Source: an uncultured bacterium (GTDB taxonomy: Bacteria; Patescibacteriota; Minisyncoccia; Phycocordibacterales; Phycocordibacteraceae). From it: a stretch of DNA of 64,000 bases. Shown here piece after piece: positions 6,238 to 47,034 of this stretch (position 1 is the stretch's first letter; every line of letters starts with the position of its first letter). The position numbers and the translations under genes were made by a program. Under the pieces are notes generated by a model. It was not told where the DNA came from. It did no database searches and was given only the letters and a program-made list of their open reading frames with translations. The stretch covers positions 336,682 to 400,681 of the forward strand of contig CAVXAH010000001.1 of the NCBI GenBank assembly GCA_963759775.1, read 5' to 3'.

Positions 6238-6440
6238 CGAGCGAGGTTGTAGGAAGTGGGTGGTAGGTGGTAGAAATACACCTCAACGCGCCCGTATGTA
6301 AGTAGGCTTTCTTCCTACGCTCGCTCGCGAGCATGAAAGCAGACTTTCCTGCTCGCCTCGCTCGCTTGGCAGTAGGCATACGAGCGCTGCGTTCGGCGCA
6401 AGAGAATGCTAGATTACTAACGTTCTCTTGGCCTCACTTC

Positions 6441-6513
6441 GCGCCCGTAGCTCAGTCGGTAGAGCAGCTCCCTTTTAAGGAGATGGTCGTTGGTTCGATT
6501 CCTACCGGGCGCA
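6441..6513 (+). tRNA. tRNA-Lys(TTT), no encoded CCA
   Basis: Acceptor GCGCCCG/CGGGCGC, D-arm GCTCAGTCGGTAGAGC, anticodon loop CTTTTAA, T-loop GGTTCGATTCC. Confidence 0.9.
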
Positions 6514-10327: not shown

Positions 10328-12001
10328 ATGGATTCGCCCTTTGATACCGCGCGTGAGGACAGCCAGCTTTCCGAAATGCGTGAGCGTGAAGAAGAAGACG
10401 TTACGCGGATTTTGTCGGAGAAATACGGCCTTTCCTATGCCGACCTTGGAATGGTTGCGATTGATAACGAGGCACTTCGAACCATCCCCGAGCAAGATGC
10501 GCGTGAAGCAGAGGTTGTTGCATTTGGCCGAATCGCAAAACATCTCTCTCTTGCGGTTAGAAACCCAAACAATCCTGCGCTCTCAAGTGTTCTTGAAGCG
10601 CTCCAAAAGCGCGGTTTTCTCATAAAACAATTCTTGGTTTCAAAACGCAGTCTTGAAAAAGCGTTTGCGCGCTACAGCGACCTTTCGTTTGCGACCGAGA
10701 CAAAAGCGGGCGTGCTGGAGTTCGCTCCTGCCGCTATCGCAGAGCTCGCGAAAACGACCTCCTCGCTTGCGGCCATGCGCAAAGCACTTGAAGCGGCCGC
10801 GGCTTTAAAATCGCTTGATAGGGTGTCGCGCGTTCTTGAAGCAATTTTTGCAGGAGCATTCGCCCTCAAAGCATCCGATATACACTTTGAGCCCGAAGAA
10901 AGGAGCGTCCGCCTCCGCATTCGTTTGGATGGCCTTCTGACTGATGTGTTCTCTTTTGACCCCACACTCCATCACCAAATTAATTCGCGACTCAAGCTTT
11001 TATCGGGAGCGAAGTTGAACATAACAAACCGCGCACAAGACGGCCGCTTCAGCATCAATAAGGGTGATGTTGAGATTGATGTGCGCGCCTCATTCATTCC
11101 GGGGTCAAATGGCGAGGCTCTCGTGTTTCGCCTTCTTGATCCCGCCTCAATACAGGTATCAATTAAAGAGCTCGGCATCCATCCAAAACTCCTCGCGCGG
11201 CTTGAGACAGAAATCCGCCACTCAAACGGCATGTTGCTCACGACAGGCCCAACCGGAAGCGGCAAAACAACAACTCTCTACTCTTTCCTTCGCGAAATCC
11301 ATACGCCGGATATAAAAATTATTACGATTGAAGACCCGGTTGAATACCATTTGGACGGCATTGTGCAAACGCAAGTTGATGCAAAAAAATACACCTTTGC
11401 CGACGGGCTTCGCTCCATCGTGCGCCAAGACCCAGATGTGATCATGGTCGGTGAAATTCGCGATGGAGACACTGCCGGCATCGCTATTGAAGCCGCACTC
11501 ACCGGCCACTTTGTTTTCTCAACACTTCACACCAACAATGCGGCCGGCACCTTTCCCCGCCTTGCTGACCTTGGTGCTGACCCCAAATCATTTGGTTCCG
11601 CGATTACGGTCTCCATGGCGCAACGTCTCATTCGAAAACTGCATCCGGAAAAACGAAAGTCACGTAAGCTTACGGACGCGGAGAAACGAATGGTTGAGCG
11701 CGTACTCTCACCCGTTGCTGACAAAAGTCTTATCCCCGACAACCGCGACACAGTATGGGACCCTGCGCCAGAAAGTGAAGAGGAAACTGGATACAAAGGA
11801 CGAATTGGGCTTTACGAAGCTATTTTTATGGACGACGAGCTCGCCGCCTTTCTTCGTGGGAATCCTTCTGAGAATGAAATTGCCGCAAGGGTGGTGAAGC
11901 AGGGCTATCTCACGATGGCGCAAGACGGCATCATAAAAGCGCTCACCGGAGTAACTTCTCTTGAGGAGGTGGCGCGCATGGTTGATTTGCCCCGAGTGTA
12001 G
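10328..12001 (+). CDS. pilB: Type II/IV secretion ATPase, PilB/GspE family (copy 1)
   Basis: Walker A GPTGSGKTTT, Asp box, Walker B VIMVGEIRD, His box TGHFVFSTLHTN; ATG 10328 (TGcTATTAT box 8 nt upstream) preferred over 10250. Confidence 0.85.
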   Translation: MDSPFDTAREDSQLSEMREREEEDVTRILSEKYGLSYADLGMVAIDNEALRTIPEQDAREAEVVAFGRIAKHLSLAVRNPNNPALSSVLEALQKRGFLIKQFLVSKRSLEKAFARYSDLSFATETKAGVLEFAPAAIAELAKTTSSLAAMRKALEAAAALKSLDRVSRVLEAIFAGAFALKASDIHFEPEERSVRLRIRLDGLLTDVFSFDPTLHHQINSRLKLLSGAKLNITNRAQDGRFSINKGDVEIDVRASFIPGSNGEALVFRLLDPASIQVSIKELGIHPKLLARLETEIRHSNGMLLTTGPTGSGKTTTLYSFLREIHTPDIKIITIEDPVEYHLDGIVQTQVDAKKYTFADGLRSIVRQDPDVIMVGEIRDGDTAGIAIEAALTGHFVFSTLHTNNAAGTFPRLADLGADPKSFGSAITVSMAQRLIRKLHPEKRKSRKLTDAEKRMVERVLSPVADKSLIPDNRDTVWDPAPESEEETGYKGRIGLYEAIFMDDELAAFLRGNPSENEIAARVVKQGYLTMAQDGIIKALTGVTSLEEVARMVDLPRV

Positions 12002-12008
12002 GGTCACT

Positions 12009-12042
12009 AAAAACAGCCCCGACATACGTCGGGGCTGTTTTT
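12009..12042 (+). terminator. Intrinsic terminator after pilB copy 1
   Basis: CAGCCCCGAC ... GTCGGGGCTG 10-bp stem followed by TTTTT. Confidence 0.7.
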
Positions 12043-12133
12043 ACTACCAAGCGAGTCCGAGGCAACAAAAATCTTCTTTTGTTTTTGTGAGGTGAGCGCC
12101 GGGAGAAAGCTTACTTAAATATGGTTCATCGTA

Positions 12134-32146: not shown

Positions 32147-32214
32147 TTGCGAATCGTAGCATATGAAGGATATATGCTCGTATCTTGGCTCGCTTGGTAG
32201 TACTATGCGAAGAC

Positions 32215-32286
32215 GCCCCTGTAGTGAAACGGATCTCACAACAGTCTTCGGAACTGTTATTCCGGGTTCGACTCCTGGCGGGGGCA
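32215..32286 (+). tRNA. tRNA-Arg(TCG), no encoded CCA
   Basis: Acceptor GCCCCTG/CGGGGGC, anticodon stem ACAGT/ACTGT loop CTTCGGA, T-arm CCGGG-TTCGACT-CCTGG; TACTAT box 8 nt upstream. Confidence 0.85.
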
Positions 32287-32343
32287 CAAGAAAAATTAAA
32301 AAGTGGAAAGGTAAGCGAAGCGCATGTTATGATTGCGCGCGTA

Positions 32344-32417
32344 GCGGGCATGGTTCAGTGGTAGAACGCGTCCTTGCCAAGGACGAGACGGGATTTCGAT
32401 TATCCCTGCCCGCACCA
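32344..32417 (+). tRNA. tRNA-Gly(GCC), the only tRNA here with genomically encoded CCA
   Basis: Acceptor GCGGGCA/TGCCCGC, anticodon loop TTGCCAA, T-loop TTCGATT, then A-CCA (32414-32417). Confidence 0.9.
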
Positions 32418-33030: not shown

Positions 33031-33101
33031 CGGGGCGTCGTATACCGGTAGTACGCTTGGTTTGGGACCAAGATGACCGGGTTCGATTCCCGGCGCCCCG
33101 A
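33031..33101 (+). tRNA. tRNA-Pro(TGG), no encoded CCA
   Basis: Acceptor CGGGGCG/CGCCCCG, anticodon stem CTTGG/CCAAG loop TTTGGGA, T-arm CCGGG-TTCGATT-CCCGG. Confidence 0.85.
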
Positions 33102-33136: not shown

Positions 33137-33228
33137 ACGTAAGGAGGGCGAGAACGTTCTAGTTCAAGTTTTCCGTAATAAGGATTACTCCCTTCGCTTG
33201 CCTCGGACGAACGAATCAGATTCGTTCG

Positions 33229-34446
33229 TCACTCAGCTAGCTTGGTAGTGAGAATTGCTTCAAGTACCGGAATGCGCGGAGCAAAGTTTTCTATTGAGGT
33301 TTTTATCGGTTGTGTAAGAAAAGAATCAAGACTCTGTCCCGTTTCATTTGCAAAATCTCTGCGCATATACGAAGCGGTGATGGCGTTTATGTTGCGTGAG
33401 GAAAAATCTCCCTCGGTTGTGCTTGTCGTGATGGTTCCAATAAGTATGCCAAGCGTGTTTATAATTCCCCCACCGGAAGAACCTTCTTGTGCGGCCTCTG
33501 ATCCGCCAAGTGAAATTACATCCACACTCGTTTTTTCAAACGTAAACAATTTCTTTATAGATCCCGCCACAATGGTTGCATAAAGCGATGAATCTATCTG
33601 GTCTGCGTCGAGAAGTTGAGCAGGGTATGCGCCGATAGTGATTTCATCACTGGCCTTGGGCGCGAGTTTTGCAAGCGGCACAAAGGAGAACCCGCTGGGA
33701 AGCGGATCCCGCGTAAGGCTCCCCGTGACGGCAAGAAGGGCAAAATCATGCTCACCCGTTCCCGAAGGAGTCTCAGCAAGAAGTATGTCCGCATTCGCCT
33801 TTACCCAGGCGCTGGAAACGAAAATGGGCGCAGCCGTATATGCGGTTTTTGCAGGGCTTCCCGTACGTATTTTGCAAGTGACGCCTAGGTCTGCGAGAAG
33901 AAAATGCTGAGCAATGTGTGAGTTAGTGAGAATAATGCCTTTGTGGTCTATCATCACCCCGCTTCCCGAAGTGGAGTGCACACCTGCACTTTTTGGGGCG
34001 AAGCAGATGATATTGACGAGGGCAAGACGCAGGTTTGCGGCAACATTGTTAAGTGGTGGCTCAACCGTTGTAACGGTTGCAACCACGGTCGTAGTTGAAA
34101 TCGGTGGGGGAGTCGGAGCTGGTCCTGGAGGTGGTTGAGGCGAAGCGGGTTTTGGCTCCGGCTTCGGAGTCGTGTTTGTTGGAGTTTTTTCGGTTGAGGT
34201 AGCGGGCGTGGGAGCCACAATCGGCTCCACAAAAAGAGGAAGGGTTGGAAGAACTGGAGGCAGGGAGGCGGGAACGACGGCGAGCGAGGTGGTTGCGACT
34301 GGTTCTGCGACCGAGACACTTTTCGTTTCAGGACCGTTGTGTACGAGAATGGTAAGTGTACCGACAGCAAACACAACCGCGAGGAACTTGAGGTAGAAAA
34401 AGGGGGACACGTATAGAACGGTAGCGCAAAACGAGCAAAAAGACAC
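33229..34446 (-). CDS. Membrane-anchored trypsin-like serine protease (S1 family)
   Basis: N-terminal TM, Pro/Thr-rich linker, GSGVMIDHKGIILTNSHI (His region) and GSSGGGIIN (Ser region); start codon uncertain (GTG 34446 or internal GTG). Confidence 0.75.
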   Translation of the reverse strand: MSFCSFCATVLYVSPFFYLKFLAVVFAVGTLTILVHNGPETKSVSVAEPVATTSLAVVPASLPPVLPTLPLFVEPIVAPTPATSTEKTPTNTTPKPEPKPASPQPPPGPAPTPPPISTTTVVATVTTVEPPLNNVAANLRLALVNIICFAPKSAGVHSTSGSGVMIDHKGIILTNSHIAQHFLLADLGVTCKIRTGSPAKTAYTAAPIFVSSAWVKANADILLAETPSGTGEHDFALLAVTGSLTRDPLPSGFSFVPLAKLAPKASDEITIGAYPAQLLDADQIDSSLYATIVAGSIKKLFTFEKTSVDVISLGGSEAAQEGSSGGGIINTLGILIGTITTSTTEGDFSSRNINAITASYMRRDFANETGQSLDSFLTQPIKTSIENFAPRIPVLEAILTTKLAE

Positions 34447-41029: not shown

Positions 41030-41420
41030 ACTAAAAGGCGTTGTTCGCCTGTAGGTTATTAAATTGTAGCCTGAGGTGTGTTACAGGCAGTGTTTCGAAT
41101 GTTTCTATAGTGTGTCGGGTCATATGGGTTGTGTATGTGTCGTTCTTTGAAAATCGTAGCCTGCTTCGTTACAGGGCCCCGCGATTCCCTCCGTCGTACC
41201 TTTGTACGCCTCTGGAAATCGCTTTCCCCGTGCCTCGCATACTATCGATTTTCAAGGAACTTTTCGCACTTTTCTAAAAATAAATGCCCGCGCACGCGGA
41301 CATCCAATAACCACCAAGATATCAAAAACTGCGTGTTGCGTCAATGAAGCCCTCAGGTTCTTGGCGAGTTATTCATGGAGCGGTTATTCCATAGCCCCTC
41401 GCATACGCTATTATTGGCGC

Positions 41421-43169
41421 ATGCACGTTTCAGAAAGCGAACTAAAAGAATTCATTCTTGACTCAGGGCTCGTGGCCAAAAAGGAAATTGACGCAGCATC
41501 AGCCGATGCGAAGACACGCGGCCAATCGCTTGGTGACATTCTTGTCTCACGCGGAGCACTCACCGAAGACGCGCTCCGCAGGATCCAGGCTTACGTGCTT
41601 GGCATCCCATTCGTTAATCTAAAAGACCGACGCATTCCTCCTGACGTGCTCGTGCTTATCCCAGAGCCAATCGCGCGTACCCACAACCTCATTGCGTACA
41701 AAAAGGAGGGAGAAACGCTTGAAGTTGCCATGCTTGATGTTGAAGATCTCGCATCTATCGACTTCGTGCGTAAAAAGACAGGACTCAAGATTTTGCCGCG
41801 GCTCACCGACACGGAATCTATCAAACACTCGCTTCTTCAGTACCAGAAGTCTCTCAAGGACGAGTTCGGAGACATTATTTCAACGGAAGCGGGAAAGCTG
41901 AAGGTGGTGAAAGCGGGCGATGCGGATCTTTCCCACGATGATCTCAAAAAAATGGCAGAGGACCTGCCGATTGTGCGCATCGTTGACACACTCCTTCGCC
42001 ATGCCATCACGCAAGATGCATCTGACATACATATTGAACCCATGGAGCAGGAAGTGTTGGTCCGGTATCGCATTGACGGCATTTTGCACGACGCGATGAT
42101 GCTTCCGCGAGCCGCAGCAGCCGGGCTTGCTGCCCGCATCAAGGTGCTCGCAACGCTCAAGCTTGATGAAAAACGCTTGCCGCAAGACGGTCGCTTCAAG
42201 ATGGAGACGGAAGCGGATCGGGTGTCGTTTCGTGTTTCGGTGCTCCCCACTTTTTTCGGAGAAAAAATTGTGATGCGTCTTCTCCGAGAGACCGGCGAAG
42301 GATTTACTCTTGACGCTCTTGGGTTCCACGGCGAAAACCTGGAGCGCATCCACAAGGCACTGAAGCAGACTACCGGCATTGTGCTCGTTTCCGGCCCCAC
42401 GGGAAGCGGAAAAACGACGACGCTGTACACCATGCTCGATATTTTGAATACGCCGGATGTCAACATTTCAACCATTGAAGACCCGATTGAGTATCAAATG
42501 AAGCGGGTAAACCAAACGCAGGTGAACTCACAAATTGGATTCACTTTTTCTTCAGGACTCCGCTCTCTCGTTCGCCAGGACCCAGACATCATCATGGTCG
42601 GCGAAATTCGAGACAGCGAAACCGCGAGCCTTGCTATCAATGCCGCACTCACCGGTCACCTCGTGCTCTCAACCATCCACACCAACTCCGCGGCGGGCGC
42701 TATTCCGCGCCTTCTTGATATGGGAGTTGAGCCGTTTCTTCTCGCATCGACCATACGCGTCGTCATAGGTCAGCGCCTGGTGAGAAAACTCTGTGACGGC
42801 AAAGAGGAGTATTCACTTTCCGCCACCGAGCGAGCGAAGGTTTCGTCCGACCAGTCGTTTAACGCCGCCCTTAAAGCGTTACGTGCAGAAAAACTTGTAA
42901 AAGAGAATGCCGGACTCGACAGCCTTTCGTTCTATCACCCCAAGCCTTCCTCGGAATGTGAAGACGGCTACAAGAGCCGTATTGGTATCCATGAAGTAAT
43001 GGCGGTGTCTCCTGCGATTCGTGAGATCATGCTTCACGAGACCACGACCGATACGCTTGAAGCACAGGCGAAAAAAGAGGGTATGCTCACCATGCTTGAA
43101 GACGGTATCTACAAGGCTTCCCGCGGCGTGACCTCGCTTGAAGAGGTACTTCGCGCCGTGAGCGAATAA
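41421..43169 (+). CDS. pilB: Type IV pilus assembly ATPase PilB/GspE (copy 2)
   Basis: T2SSE N-domain, Walker A SGPTGSGKTTT, IIMVGEIRD, TGHLVLSTIHTN; ATG 41421 lies 6 nt after TATTAT; longer ORF from 41202 rejected. Confidence 0.9.
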   Translation: MHVSESELKEFILDSGLVAKKEIDAASADAKTRGQSLGDILVSRGALTEDALRRIQAYVLGIPFVNLKDRRIPPDVLVLIPEPIARTHNLIAYKKEGETLEVAMLDVEDLASIDFVRKKTGLKILPRLTDTESIKHSLLQYQKSLKDEFGDIISTEAGKLKVVKAGDADLSHDDLKKMAEDLPIVRIVDTLLRHAITQDASDIHIEPMEQEVLVRYRIDGILHDAMMLPRAAAAGLAARIKVLATLKLDEKRLPQDGRFKMETEADRVSFRVSVLPTFFGEKIVMRLLRETGEGFTLDALGFHGENLERIHKALKQTTGIVLVSGPTGSGKTTTLYTMLDILNTPDVNISTIEDPIEYQMKRVNQTQVNSQIGFTFSSGLRSLVRQDPDIIMVGEIRDSETASLAINAALTGHLVLSTIHTNSAAGAIPRLLDMGVEPFLLASTIRVVIGQRLVRKLCDGKEEYSLSATERAKVSSDQSFNAALKALRAEKLVKENAGLDSLSFYHPKPSSECEDGYKSRIGIHEVMAVSPAIREIMLHETTTDTLEAQAKKEGMLTMLEDGIYKASRGVTSLEEVLRAVSE

Positions 43170-43174
43170 CAAAC

Positions 43175-44389
43175 ATGAAATTCACTGTCACTATCCGAAA
43201 AGGAGATGCGCAAAACGAGACGCGGGTCCTTGAGGCGCCTTCGCGTTTTGCGGTGTATGAAATGGTTGAAAAGGAAGGCGGTACGGTTGTCACTCTCAAA
43301 GAGGGTGGCGGGGCGGGAGGGCGTCCGGCATGGATGGATATAAGCTTTGGCACGGGTATCAAACAGATAGAGGTCATCACGCTCACCAAGAATTTGTCCG
43401 CCATGCTCACCGCAGGACTTTCTCTTTCGCGAGCGCTTTCGGTTATTGAACGACAGTCAAGTAACAAAAGTCTTAAGAAGCTGGTAGTCGCACTCGGCGA
43501 TTCGGTAAAAAAGGGCTCTTCCTTTCATGATGCACTCGCCGAGCACAAAAAAATATTTTCAAGTCTTTACATAGCCATGGCGAGAGCAGGAGAGGAGTCT
43601 GGTTCGCTTGCGCCCTCACTCTCAATTGTCGGTCTTCAGATGGAGAGGACCTACGCACTCATCCGCAAACTCAAAGGAGCCATGATTTATCCGGTGGTGG
43701 TTATCACCGCTATTTTTATCGTGGGAATCCTCATGCTTATTTACGTAGTGCCGACACTCACGGCGACATTCACCTCCCTTAACGTAGAACTTCCGCTTGC
43801 AACAAGAGTGATTGTCGCGCTTTCTAATTTCATGGTGGACCATGTGGTGATCGTCGCCCTCCTTATCATCTTTTCCATAGGTGGCATGATATTTTTCATA
43901 CGCTCAAACGTAGGCTCGGCGATTATCCTCCGAATTGCTCTCCATCTTCCTATCATCGGCGACCTTGTGCGCGAAACGTATGCCGCACGCACCGCCCGCA
44001 CGCTCTCCTCACTTCTTTCTTCTGCCGTTCCCGTTCTTGAGGCTCTTTCCATTACGGCAGAAGTCGTTCATGCGCCACTTTTTGCACGCGTCATTGAGGA
44101 AGCGGAAGTGAAGGTGAAGAAGGGCGAGCCGCTCTCCACCGCATTTATTGAGAATCCGAAACTCTACCCGATATTGATGGGAGACATGCTTGCCGTAGGC
44201 GAAGAAACAGGAAAAGTGGATGAAATGCTCCGGCGCACCGCAGAATTTTACGAAGAAGACGTCTCGGAAAGAACGAAAGACCTCTCAACAGTCATAGAAC
44301 CAGTGCTCATTCTCCTTATCGGTCTTTTTGTCGGTGTCTTTGCGGTCGCCATGATCGCCCCTATCTACTCGCTCTCCTCGGCGATCTAA
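43175..44389 (+). CDS. pilC: Type IV pilus platform protein PilC/GspF
   Basis: 404 aa, two GspF repeats, three TM segments, adjacent to pilB. Confidence 0.9.
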   Translation: MKFTVTIRKGDAQNETRVLEAPSRFAVYEMVEKEGGTVVTLKEGGGAGGRPAWMDISFGTGIKQIEVITLTKNLSAMLTAGLSLSRALSVIERQSSNKSLKKLVVALGDSVKKGSSFHDALAEHKKIFSSLYIAMARAGEESGSLAPSLSIVGLQMERTYALIRKLKGAMIYPVVVITAIFIVGILMLIYVVPTLTATFTSLNVELPLATRVIVALSNFMVDHVVIVALLIIFSIGGMIFFIRSNVGSAIILRIALHLPIIGDLVRETYAARTARTLSSLLSSAVPVLEALSITAEVVHAPLFARVIEEAEVKVKKGEPLSTAFIENPKLYPILMGDMLAVGEETGKVDEMLRRTAEFYEEDVSERTKDLSTVIEPVLILLIGLFVGVFAVAMIAPIYSLSSAI

Positions 44390-45833: not shown

Positions 45834-46507
45834 AAGTTTCGAAGATACACGTGCGCTCGGACATGCGCACCGAGTGCTTGCCCATGAGCTGATGTGGTAG
45901 TGGTAGCGTCAACGTAAAGACTGGTGGCCGCGGTCACGTCTACATTGTCGTAGGTAAACAAGAGACTGTCGAGCACGCTCGTTAACTTCTTACTCCCCGA
46001 AGTGCGGCTACTTGCGGGAGCGGCGTCTATCAGCCGATACGCATCGGTCCCAGAAGCGTAAATGCCTATGTAATCATAGGACCCAGAAATGGTGGCACCG
46101 GCGCTCGTAATCGCAGGGAGCTCAAACACTGCCGTCGTGCTCCCAGAGGTATACGTAGTTCCGGAAAACGCATGCGAGGCGAGGATATGGGTCGCTTGAA
46201 GTGCCGCCTCACGCGTCTCGTCAACGATTTGACTGCCGCCACTGGTTACGGCGATGGAGGACTCAACATACGGAAATGTGCGACTAAACCCAACATATAC
46301 ATAGGACAGGGCCAGCATAAGCATCACGGTAAGCGCGGTAGTGATGAGGACCTCAATAAGTGTAAAGCCACGGACGGCTTTGCTCCCCGCGCTCGCTTCG
46401 GACGATCGCATGAGGATGTGCGATCGTCGCTCAGCTCGCTTGGTAGTAAAACCTCGGCAGAAAGGTTGGAGGTTGGAGGTTGGAGGTTGGGAGAACATAT
46501 GGGACAT
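45830..46507 (-). CDS. Type IV pilin-like protein 1 (prepilin), start uncertain
   Basis: Prepilin motif G|FTLIEVLITTAL; possible starts ATG 46507 (2 nt after the upstream pilin stop), 46498 or 46411, all in frame. Confidence 0.8.
   Translation of the reverse strand: MSHMFSQPPTSNLQPFCRGFTTKRAERRSHILMRSSEASAGSKAVRGFTLIEVLITTALTVMLMLALSYVYVGFSRTFPYVESSIAVTSGGSQIVDETREAALQATHILASHAFSGTTYTSGSTTAVFELPAITSAGATISGSYDYIGIYASGTDAYRLIDAAPASSRTSGSKKLTSVLDSLLFTYDNVDVTAATSLYVDATTTTSAHGQALGAHVRAHVYLRNL
46463..46490. repeat. Heptanucleotide tandem repeat (AGGTTGG)x4, CCAACCT on the pilin strand
   Basis: Four perfect 7-nt units read directly from sequence, inside the long-leader reading frame of pilin 1. 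Confidence 0.95.
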
Positions 46508-46509
46508 GC

Positions 46510-46980
46510 TTAAAGGCCACCAACTTCGGTGACAAGCGTGGTGAGTGACACGTACCGCGAACTGCCGGTTGATGCTACCCACGCGACGCCGACGACAACC
46601 TTTTTGGTCTTCGTGTTGTAAGTGGAGACGCTGGTACTCGCAGAGGCAGACGGGATAGAGGCAAGCAGTGGATCACTAAAGATGCCGCTCGGAGGGAGCG
46701 CCGCATATCCGAGCGCACGGAGTTCATCAAGTTTGGTATGAGCGACACGAAGGGCGGTGTGTTCAAAGCGAATTTCGGCAGCGTTTTTAAGTAGCGTACC
46801 GACTACGCTAAAGAGAGTAATCGAAACACCCACAATAAAAACAGCGACCAGAGTTTCAATGAGCGTAAACCCTCGGAAGGTTTTTCTCCCTGCGCTCGCC
46901 GCAGACAAACGCATGGGGACATGCGCTTGTCGTTCGGCTCGTTTGGTAGTAAAACCTCGGCGAGAGACCCTCTGAATCAT
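46510..46980 (-). CDS. Type IV pilin-like protein 2 (prepilin), start uncertain
   Basis: Prepilin motif G|FTLIETLVAVFIVG; in-frame starts ATG 46980 (6 nt after a TATACT box) or ATG 46914. Confidence 0.8.
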   Translation of the reverse strand: MIQRVSRRGFTTKRAERQAHVPMRLSAASAGRKTFRGFTLIETLVAVFIVGVSITLFSVVGTLLKNAAEIRFEHTALRVAHTKLDELRALGYAALPPSGIFSDPLLASIPSASASTSVSTYNTKTKKVVVGVAWVASTGSSRYVSLTTLVTEVGGL

Positions 46981-46987
46981 GGATGCA

Positions 46988-47034
46988 GTATACCCCCACA
47001 CGAACTTCTCCAGACAGTTCGTGTGGGGGTATAC
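46988..47034. promoter_or_regulatory. 18-bp perfect palindrome carrying two divergent TATACT boxes (pilin 2 / tpiA)
   Basis: GTATACCCCCACACGAAC-11 nt-GTTCGTGTGGGGGTATAC; each outer end plus one T reads TATACT, 6 nt from ATG 47042 (tpiA) and ATG 46980 (pilin 2). Confidence 0.5.

Follow-up and report, generated by a model that had tools for sequence, protein, structure and literature searches.

The genes considered here lie in a 64-kb stretch of DNA (64,000 nt; hereafter the window) from an uncultured bacterium of the Patescibacteriota (assembly GCA_963759775.1, contig CAVXAH010000001.1, positions 336,682 to 400,681). A minus-strand minor-pilin operon encodes, in this order, pilin 2, pilin 1 and a PilX-like protein, and is flanked by pilB and pilC on one side and by the plus-strand tpiA/pgk genes on the other (Table 1). 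Both pilins fit type IV prepilins, with a cleavage motif followed by a hydrophobic helix, according to a motif scan and to matches with the Pfam N_methyl family (PF07963; 24.9 bits for pilin 2, residues 33–55, and 23.8 bits for pilin 1, residues 43–67 of the long forms; cut-off 21.2). The G/FTLIE motif (cleavage at the slash) starts at 46872 in pilin 2 and at 46369 in pilin 1. Protein matches place the organism in the Patescibacteria (candidate phyla radiation), close to metagenome-assembled genomes (MAGs) labelled Paceibacterota or Kaiserbacteria. A first-pass annotation had noticed that the two genes share a long leader with a hairpin around an internal AUG, and had taken this leader to be a conserved property of two paralogous prepilins. 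Our analysis leads to a different reading, to which we assign a probability of roughly two in three: the shared ‘leader’ is made up of two units of a palindromic, non-autonomous repeat that is dispersed in Patescibacteria, is compatible with open reading frames (ORFs), is probably mobile and would use the cleavable prepilin leader as a site where it is tolerated.

The observations underlying the first-pass annotation agree with the sequence. Pilin 2 runs from ATG 46980 to the TAA stop at 46512–46510, pilin 1 begins at ATG 46507, 2 nt past this stop, internal in-frame ATGs are present at 46914 (pilin 2) and 46411 (pilin 1), and the TATACT box has the spacing reported. The upstream ATGs yield leaders of 37 aa (pilin 2) and 47 aa (pilin 1) with the segment RGFTTKRAER inside. 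The conserved block extends from GCCGAGGTTTT (46961 in pilin 2, 46458 in pilin 1) to the GFTLIE codons over about 107 nt, about 90 nt of which lie upstream of the Gly codon; it is far more conserved than the pilin bodies, which diverge straight after it, and a 22-nt probe taken from it matches only the two pilin sites in the window (0 expected). The hairpins at 46428–46401 (GACGAUCGCA/UGCGAUCGUC) and 46931–46904 (GACAAGCGCA/UGCGUUUGUC) comprise 10 bp each and differ, as had been stated, by a G-C to A-U change at pair 4 and a U-A to G-U change at pair 6. Both fold far better than shuffled sequences do (z-scores of -4.3 and -5.5).

Two features had escaped the first-pass annotation, namely three further copies in the window that lie outside pilin genes, giving five copies in total, and a second hairpin that spans the Gly-Phe codons of the cleavage site. 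The element is composed of a 5’ box ACUACCAAGCGAG, a first hairpin (HP1; 12 bp of free sequence, the hairpin noticed earlier), a 3’ box GAGCGCAGGGAG (given also as GCGCAGGGAG), a second hairpin (HP2; AAANCC-loop-GGNUUU) and a terminal AC. Unit length is about 84 nt in the window and about 70–96 nt across the family. The left flank mostly reads T(T/C)AC and the right end always TTAC; the 16–17 nt between the left TTAC and HP1 are taken up by the rest of the 5’ box and a short spacer. HP1 is closed by a pyrimidine-rich tetraloop and falls into a GC-rich class, which includes the window copies, and an AU-rich class; a third subfamily (L015, L018 and L021) has the same architecture with a different sequence. 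The two boxes are almost invariant across diverged genomes (alignment A4) and are able to pair imperfectly with each other, but since these pairs never vary, the box pairing yields no covariation evidence. In pilin 2 the element is inserted directly 3’ of the native GGT TTT AC (46956–46949). The register of HP2 in this copy was read by eye, as the single-copy fold did not return the hairpin.

Table 1. Copies and parts of the repeat element, and genes and signals of the pilin locus (window positions; HP1 and HP2, first and second hairpin)
Feature	Position	Strand	Remarks
Element copy A, TACC... to ...GGGTTTAC	46865..46948	-	84 nt; covariance-model hit 46865-46958, 84.6 bits, E 1e-17
Copy A, 5’ box ACUACCAAACGAG	46938..46950	-	invariant or near-invariant columns in alignment A4
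Copy A, HP1	46904..46931	-	hairpin of the first-pass annotation; in-frame AUG 46914 at the edge of loop and 3’ arm
Copy A, 3’ box GCGAGCGCAGGGAG	46886..46899	-	pairing with 5’ box possible: CU.CC/GG.AG, GCG/CGC
Copy A, HP2 AAACCU-UCCGA-GGGUUU	46867..46883	-	3’ arm = Gly-Phe codons of the cleavage site; AC at 46866-46865
Element copy B	46362..46445	-	84 nt; covariance-model hit 46362-46455, 97.6 bits, E 8e-21
Copy B, 5’ box	46447-46435		
Copy B, HP1	46428-46401		
Copy B, 3’ box	46396-46383		
Copy B, HP2 AAAGCC/GGCUUU	46381-46376/46369-46364		AC at 46363-46362
Copy at peptidase gene end, outside pilins	33175..33257	-	covariance-model hit, 50.4 bits, E 2e-9; beside tRNA 33031-33101
Intergenic copy	6298..6381	-	covariance-model hit, 48.2 bits; adjoins tRNA 6441-6513
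Intergenic copy	12035..12114	+	covariance-model hit, 45.3 bits
Lone 5’ box remnant ACTACCAAGCGAG (given also as ACTACCAAGCGAGCC)	32189..32201	-	a minus-strand gene has its ATG about 40 nt downstream
Pilin 2 gene, long form, 156 aa	46510..46980	-	ORF; native leader MIQRVSRR-GFT + 28-codon element insert + G/FTLIETL...
Pilin 1 gene, long form, 225 aa	45830..46507	-	native leader MSHMFSQPPTSNLQPFCR-GFT + 28-codon element insert + G/FTLIEVL...
TATACT, -10-like box	46987..46992	-	6 nt upstream of ATG 46980; from the sequence
PilX-like protein, 430 aa	44541-45833	-	pilin operon
pilB and pilC	41202-43169 and 43175-44389	+	one flank of the pilin operon

Covariation beyond the two pilin copies, a check the first-pass annotation had itself proposed, was found throughout the family. 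Changes on both sides of a pair occurred in all 12 pairs of HP1 over 58 distinct copies and in five of the six pairs of HP2. Overall, 92.8% of cells were paired compared with 78.3% in shuffles, controls with slid partners reached at most 62%, and the covariation score of 0.346 (shuffles: 0.121) was attained by none of 500 shuffles; an unfitted MAFFT alignment gave the same result. All four Watson-Crick combinations are seen at the N-N pair of HP2 (GC 16, CG 15, AU 11, UA 4). The downstream GGN TTT AC therefore belongs to the element, and the wobble base of its Gly codon, at the cleavage site, changes in concert with a base 10–30 nt upstream. As the upstream and downstream GGN differ, the 8-mer is not a duplication. 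The earlier claim that a G-U pair works only in the sense RNA found an echo in the family, where G-U exceeds A-C in HP1 (55 versus 24), a mild sense bias that is in part expected from model fitting. Other structural candidates were discarded: a long outer stem between the upstream GGUUUU and AAAACC suggested by single-sequence folding, as AAANCC covaries with the downstream and not the upstream GGN; a stretch of copy B (CUGAGCGA...CGAA) reminiscent of a hammerhead core, which by eye is not kept in other copies; and CsrA-type GGA loops on the antisense strand, as the AU-rich class gives GAA loops. Rfam matched nothing but tRNAs at the gathering threshold and chance microRNA-like hairpins at E ≤ 10, without a family corresponding to the element.

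Of the three window copies outside the pilins, the one at the trypsin-like peptidase ORF (33229–33954, minus strand; Pfam Trypsin_2) supplies the last six codons (TTKLAE) and the TGA stop of this ORF (33229–33257), so that the element has remodelled the 3’ end of the gene. The plus-strand copy begins directly past the terminator hairpin and T-run of a T2SSE ATPase gene (Pfam; 10328–12001), and several intergenic copies in the family start just past a terminator-like hairpin with T-run, an arrangement resembling HP2 followed by TTTAC. Two of the window copies stand beside tRNAs, the peptidase copy being one. Separately, the lone 5’ box was seen to adjoin a tRNA cluster (32215–32414).

The family extends well beyond the window. 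A DNA pattern of the two boxes with a free gap, scanned over GTDB species genomes and Joint Genome Institute (JGI) metagenomes, returned 16 and 24 loci, respectively, almost all of them from Patescibacteria, and a covariance model built from 37 copies gave 69 hits representing the 58 distinct copies. Hosts are Paceibacterota, Nomurabacteria, ‘Saccharibacteria’, unnamed patescibacterial MAGs and groundwater metagenomes, the Hainich groundwater time series being the source of L021, L023, L034 and L039. Several copies occur per MAG, at non-homologous loci, and L016 and L010 contain tandem arrays of 76–77-nt units. A hit in Xenococcus, together with its twin from a metagenome (L013, L030), was dismissed as a chance match to the pattern, at 15 bits with the model, and phage records and viral contigs yielded no copy. 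At the protein level, a profile search with the leader only, against a database of 5.8 billion sequences, produced 53 word-sharing candidates and none at E ≤ 10; a few unrelated pilin bodies (P0008, P0040, P0041) share the stretch GFTTKRAE...SAGRKTFRGFTLIE. As an observation apart, a second conserved sequence of about 45 nt (GCCCCGTCCGCTTTGCG..GGGAATGGCGAGACGGACTGTTTT) precedes the element at L024:120-260(-) and L026:2890-2945; it may be another repeat family or form part of a composite element.

The reading frame separates copies in pilin leaders from those elsewhere. Among 46 full-length copies, 31 were pilin-linked and 15 were not. Unit length was a multiple of three in all 31 pilin-linked copies (81, 84, 87 or 96 nt) compared with 6 of the 15 others; in the pilin frame, no pilin-linked copy contained a stop, although 15 and 13 did so in the other two frames, whereas in-frame TAA or TGA was found in copies outside pilins (7/15). 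The peptide encoded by pilin-linked copies always carries a positive net charge (mean +3.8). These copies are thus almost certainly translated, and the first-pass proposal that the conserved segment is translated is supported by the frame statistics, which favour the upstream ATGs; the synonymous third-position differences invoked at the time are uninformative when they distinguish two copies of a repeat. The accompanying idea of a paralogue-conserved leader with a selected RGFTTKRAER peptide had to be given up. The peptide read from the 3’ box is SAGRK in one class but ERREQ in the other: the GC-rich class reads ...ASAGRKTFRGFT, the AU-rich class reads the same bases as ...ANERREQTRLCGFT, and two compensating indels in the AU-rich class restore the total of 84 nt. 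Because different pilins read the same box in two frames, conservation acts on the nucleotides rather than the peptide, in keeping with the intergenic copies that contain stops and with the tandem arrays.

Upstream of the element, a canonical short prepilin leader is found in every case listed (MIQRVSRR-GF, MANRASHG-GF, MRTF-GF, MSMKR-F and others), and orthologous pilins without the element have leaders of 8–11 aa (M-x6-8-GFT) that align with MIQRVSRR-GFT; most homologues of pilin 2 are annotated with leaders of this length. In pilin 2 the native short basic leader MIQRVSRR-G is present, parted from the cleavage site by a 28-codon insert. No in-frame ATG exists within the element in 18 of the 31 pilin-linked copies, and seven of the 31 have neither ATG nor GTG nor TTG there, so that these seven require read-through from the native start. 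Taken together, the upstream ATGs are the better-supported translation starts. The public gene call P0001 uses the long-form start of pilin 2 as well, and its orthologues align. In L002, gene calling chose the native start for one element-bearing pilin and the internal ATG for another.

The signals around the start codons point in the same direction. With its TATACT box so close to ATG 46980, the pilin 2 mRNA is likely leaderless; the orthologue L045 has TATACT, 7 nt and ATG ahead of MAREIHRRGFT. Among 60 window ORFs of at least 120 aa, Shine-Dalgarno-like sites precede two gene starts, while a -10-like (TATAAT-like) box lies 4–8 nt before the ATG in 10 by a strict pattern and in more by eye, at slightly longer spacing; the TATACT box ahead of ATG 46980 fits this pattern. 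From the rarity of Shine-Dalgarno sites and the closeness of -10-like boxes to ATGs, it would seem that mRNAs of the source genome are frequently leaderless or nearly so. ATG 46507 of pilin 1 is placed in the usual layout for coupled translation. The internal AUGs 46914 and 46411 lack both a -10 box and a Shine-Dalgarno site upstream.

Two sequence features of the operon were noted besides. In the divergent tpiA/pilin 2 intergenic region, an inverted repeat with a 13-bp stem (CCCCCACACGAAC-(11 nt)-GTTCGTGTGGGGG, about 46993–47028, minus strand) abuts the TATACT box. It may serve as an operator or form a structure at the promoter, and Rfam gave only chance microRNA-like matches for it. In the part of pilin 1 that encodes the native leader, downstream of ATG 46507 and ahead of the element, the heptamer CCAACCT (mRNA strand) is perfectly repeated in tandem 4.0 times (window 46463–46490). 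The unit is not a multiple of three, and a change by one unit would shift the frame. The tract could thus serve for phase switching by strand slippage, in which case translation might conceivably be rescued from the internal ATG 46411.

Copy number at the cleavage site varies between relatives. Leaders contain one unit (L032), two (L034/L038, L015) or three (L027), all in frame, and reach about 95 aa; L032 and L034/L038 present the same pilin gene with one and with two units, respectively, separated by an 84-nt indel. Four of the six pilins of L002 lack the element. Internally deleted, still in-frame mini-derivatives occur in pilin leaders as well (GFTTKRAVRGFTLIE, VTAERAARGFTLIE, GFTTKRGFTLIE; sites at L012:4232, L042:3998, L015:5126, L021:1689 and L035:1867) and look like footprints of partial loss. 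Moreover, the site receives other inserts. At L045:205-335 (orthologue P0002) the codon position of the element is occupied by an unrelated, near-perfect long hairpin of 120 nt (CCCGTTAGAAGTC...GACTTCTAACGGGG) that ends in GGGTTCAC (z = -6.0) and has no match in the other fetched loci, and at the syntenic Kaiserbacteria locus (L046:3066-3115) a 45-nt insert is found at the same codon position. As unrelated inserts share this position, the GFT codons look like a general landing site, or a generally tolerated one, for hairpin-forming inserts.

The status of the element as a repeat family is established here, and so are its anatomy, the covariation, the frame statistics and the changes in copy number; translation, cleavage, mobility and a mobilising enzyme are inferred. 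These findings may be combined in the following scenario. The element would insert 3’ of T(T/C)AC, often past a hairpin ending in a T-run, and since its own right end resembles this preferred target, tandem stacking would be explained at the same time. In pilin genes the element lies directly 3’ of the native Gly-Phe-Thr codons (GGN TTY AC), whose TTT AC would offer a target upstream of the peptidase cut; the native short leader with a pseudo-site (RGFTTKRAE) is left upstream, and the terminal GGN TTT AC of the element rebuilds the G/FTLIE prepilin-peptidase site downstream. Translation would begin at the native ATG, at 46980 on a probably leaderless mRNA for pilin 2 and at 46507, coupled to the pilin 2 stop, for pilin 1; the ribosome would read through the element as 28 basic, hydrophilic residues, and prepilin peptidase would cut off the whole 37–47-aa leader, such that the mature pilin is left unchanged. 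The leader would thereby be a tolerated site in which only in-frame, stop-free and basic copies survive, insertion elsewhere in coding DNA being mostly harmful. Hairpins and boxes would most likely serve propagation of the element, with effects on pilin expression being secondary.

As to the route of insertion, a single-strand, hairpin-recognising process 3’ of T(T/C)AC is conceivable. IS608, of the IS200/IS605 family, inserts 3’ of TTAC without gain or loss of DNA, carries subterminal hairpins in place of terminal inverted repeats, and is cleaved on the left 19 nt 5’ of the hairpin foot (PMC3201880). The element resembles it in its flanks, in the lack of clear terminal inverted repeats, in the distance at which HP1 begins past the left TTAC, in tandem stacking and in its hairpin-plus-T-run sites. 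It differs in that HP2 abuts the right end, whereas the right cleavage site of IS608 is 10 nt from the hairpin, in that its hairpin sequences vary freely, and in that neither a TnpA (Y1 transposase) gene nor a full-length parent turned up, a systematic search not having been made; no full-length parent was evident among the lone boxes in 47 loci either. We regard the resemblance as a lead and not as a test. A bolder version of the scenario would make the element a site-specific single-strand (HUH/Y1-type, TTAC-targeting) non-autonomous transposon family with an evolved leader-compatible design (neutral to the frame, free of stops and coding for a basic peptide), which carries its own Gly-Phe-Thr codons in the terminal hairpin and stacks harmlessly at prepilin cleavage codons, and whose copy number (1–3 units, leaders to about 95 aa) and hairpins the host may exploit to tune or phase-vary pilin production; we consider this version doubtful.

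Several points weigh against a mobile repeat that is merely tolerated. Strong conservation of the boxes and preservation of the hairpins are also expected of a functional RNA. About two thirds of the copies (31 of 46 full-length ones) are in pilin leaders, an excess that a 4–5-nt target alone does not predict and that could equally reflect use of the element by the host in pilin mRNAs. The ends of the element (TACCAAGCGAG... and ...GGNTTTAC) are by eye not reverse complements, and there are no clear terminal inverted repeats; T(T/C)AC on the left and TTAC on the right would fit either a 4–5-bp target-site duplication or insertion 3’ of TTAC without duplication. With 64 kb of the source genome at hand and no systematic search made, neither a transposase nor an autonomous parent was found. 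A tblastn search of the 64-kb window with the A24 prepilin peptidase of L002, whose gene adjoins an element-bearing pilin in that genome, gave no match, and we infer from sequence both the start codon used and the cleavage of such long leaders. Finally, the presence/absence contrasts, like the other signs that the family is dynamic, derive from metagenome assemblies, in which repeats of 80–100 nt can give chimeras or collapses, and from diverged genomes.

The host-use argument can be taken further to a domesticated cis-acting RNA module, in which HP1 or the 3’ box could act on mRNA stability or translation rate and HP2 would mask the Gly-Phe codons; together they could set the rhythm of translation to suit membrane targeting, or adjust how much pilin is made, and intergenic copies would be by-products. 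The pilin-linked majority, the finding that both canonical GFTLIE pilins of the window carry one element copy each (motif scan), the nearly invariant boxes and the covarying structure with its G-U excess on the sense strand would all be in line with such a module. We nevertheless judge it unlikely. Most orthologous pilins do without the element, and so do four of the six pilins in L002; copy number varies from one to three and decays through internal deletion; unrelated palindromic inserts are found at the same site; copies occur past terminators and beside tRNAs; Rfam offers no matching family; and covariation among repeat copies can stem from selection on the element’s own propagation.

The model of the first-pass annotation is improbable in our view. 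According to it, a long protein-level leader (RGFTTKRAER...) is kept and the hairpin gates the internal AUG, thus deciding between a long and a short precursor. Both pilin copies of the window, and 13 of the 31 pilin-linked copies, indeed have an in-frame AUG at the edge of the HP1 loop, initiation there would yield a canonical 14-aa leader (MRSSEASAGSKAVRG), and the hairpin would occlude this start. However, the AUG is no feature of the family. The AU-rich hairpin class has no such AUG, so the hairpin is not there to gate it, and the internal AUGs 46914 and 46411 are a by-product of the CAUG palindrome atop the GC-rich HP1. As a general explanation the model is largely refuted by the copies devoid of an AUG, or of any start codon, by the 3’ box being read in two frames, by the intergenic copies with stops and by the missing initiation signals ahead of the internal AUGs.

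It seems quite improbable, too, that the shared 84-nt blocks at the 5’ ends of several pilin genes serve mainly as a recombination substrate, providing homology for gene conversion, deletion and shuffling of pilin bodies and promoters, and hence for pilin variation. Three loci (L015:5480-5800, L021:2040-2260 and L005:5440-5560) have the same upstream gene and the same first element but continue into different pilin bodies, an additional unit being present or absent in between, and the ends of the 84-nt L032/L034 indel fall inside repeated AACCC arms. The three joins point either to recombination between elements or to assembly chimeras of metagenomes at repeats; recombination is, moreover, an expected side effect of any dispersed repeat, and it leaves the covarying hairpins, intergenic copies and tandem arrays unexplained. 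Removal of the insert by RNA excision or by translational bypass between matched GGN UUU AC codons (cf. T4 gene 60 and mitochondrial byp) is hardly credible despite the matched ‘take-off’ and ‘landing’ codons that bracket a structured 84-nt gap, as no stop codon follows the first GFT and an insert that is removed needs no frame, yet the pilin-linked units, and not the others, are throughout multiples of three, stop-free and basic; we rejected it on these frame and stop statistics.

The dispersed repeat thus remains our preferred reading, and its kind is known: small in-frame palindromic repeats. By analogy, the closest precedent for translated ones is provided by the Rickettsia palindromic elements (RPEs), short palindromic non-autonomous repeats of which a large share lies in frame in genes and is translated without destroying the protein (PMC10969869). 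Like RPEs and other intragenic repeats resembling miniature inverted-repeat transposable elements (ERIC, BOX), the element is short, palindromic, non-autonomous, non-coding when alone, and present in multiple copies dispersed at non-homologous loci; as with RPEs, an ORF that has received a pilin-linked insert stays open and gains a peptide. RPEs, of about 100–150 bp, reside in many unrelated genes and contribute residues to the mature protein, whereas the element occupies one codon-defined site, the prepilin Gly-Phe-Thr, brings along a cleavage motif of its own, forms stacks of up to three units and is predicted to be discarded with the leader. We found no description in the literature of repeat elements in Patescibacteria pilin leaders or of a cleavable leader as a tolerated insertion site. 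To our knowledge, the codon-defined prepilin-leader site, the regeneration of the cleavage motif within a covarying hairpin and the stacking into very long leaders are new.

Two further comparisons delimit the element. The two pilin genes share with type IV prepilins that have class III signal peptides, long type IVb leaders included, the G/FTLIE motif, the hydrophobic helix and the basic leader. Type IV prepilin leaders are usually 5–30 aa long; those described here are longer, and their extra length is repeat and not an evolved domain. With structured cis-regulatory mRNA leaders as collected in Rfam, the element has in common a pair of covarying hairpins, along with conserved boxes that are single-stranded, in the 5’ portion of the message, but unlike these it lies inside the ORF, is also found outside pilin genes and has no fixed copy number, in addition to matching no model.

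The element would represent a case of selfish, or possibly domesticated, DNA that uses a cleavable leader as a tolerated site and rebuilds the peptidase motif it interrupts. This accounts for the puzzling long pilin ‘leaders’ and the inconsistent start calls in Patescibacteria annotations. It also implies that synonymous-site conservation in leaders can stem from an embedded element, as exemplified by the covarying wobble base of the Gly codon. Should processing occur, basic leaders of 40–95 residues would have to be tolerated by prepilin peptidase as well as in membrane targeting, a property of use in engineering pilins. In the ultra-small Patescibacteria, type IV pili have a central part in episymbiotic life and in DNA uptake, and a repeat family concentrated at pilin 5’ ends could drive rearrangement of pilins or variation in their expression.

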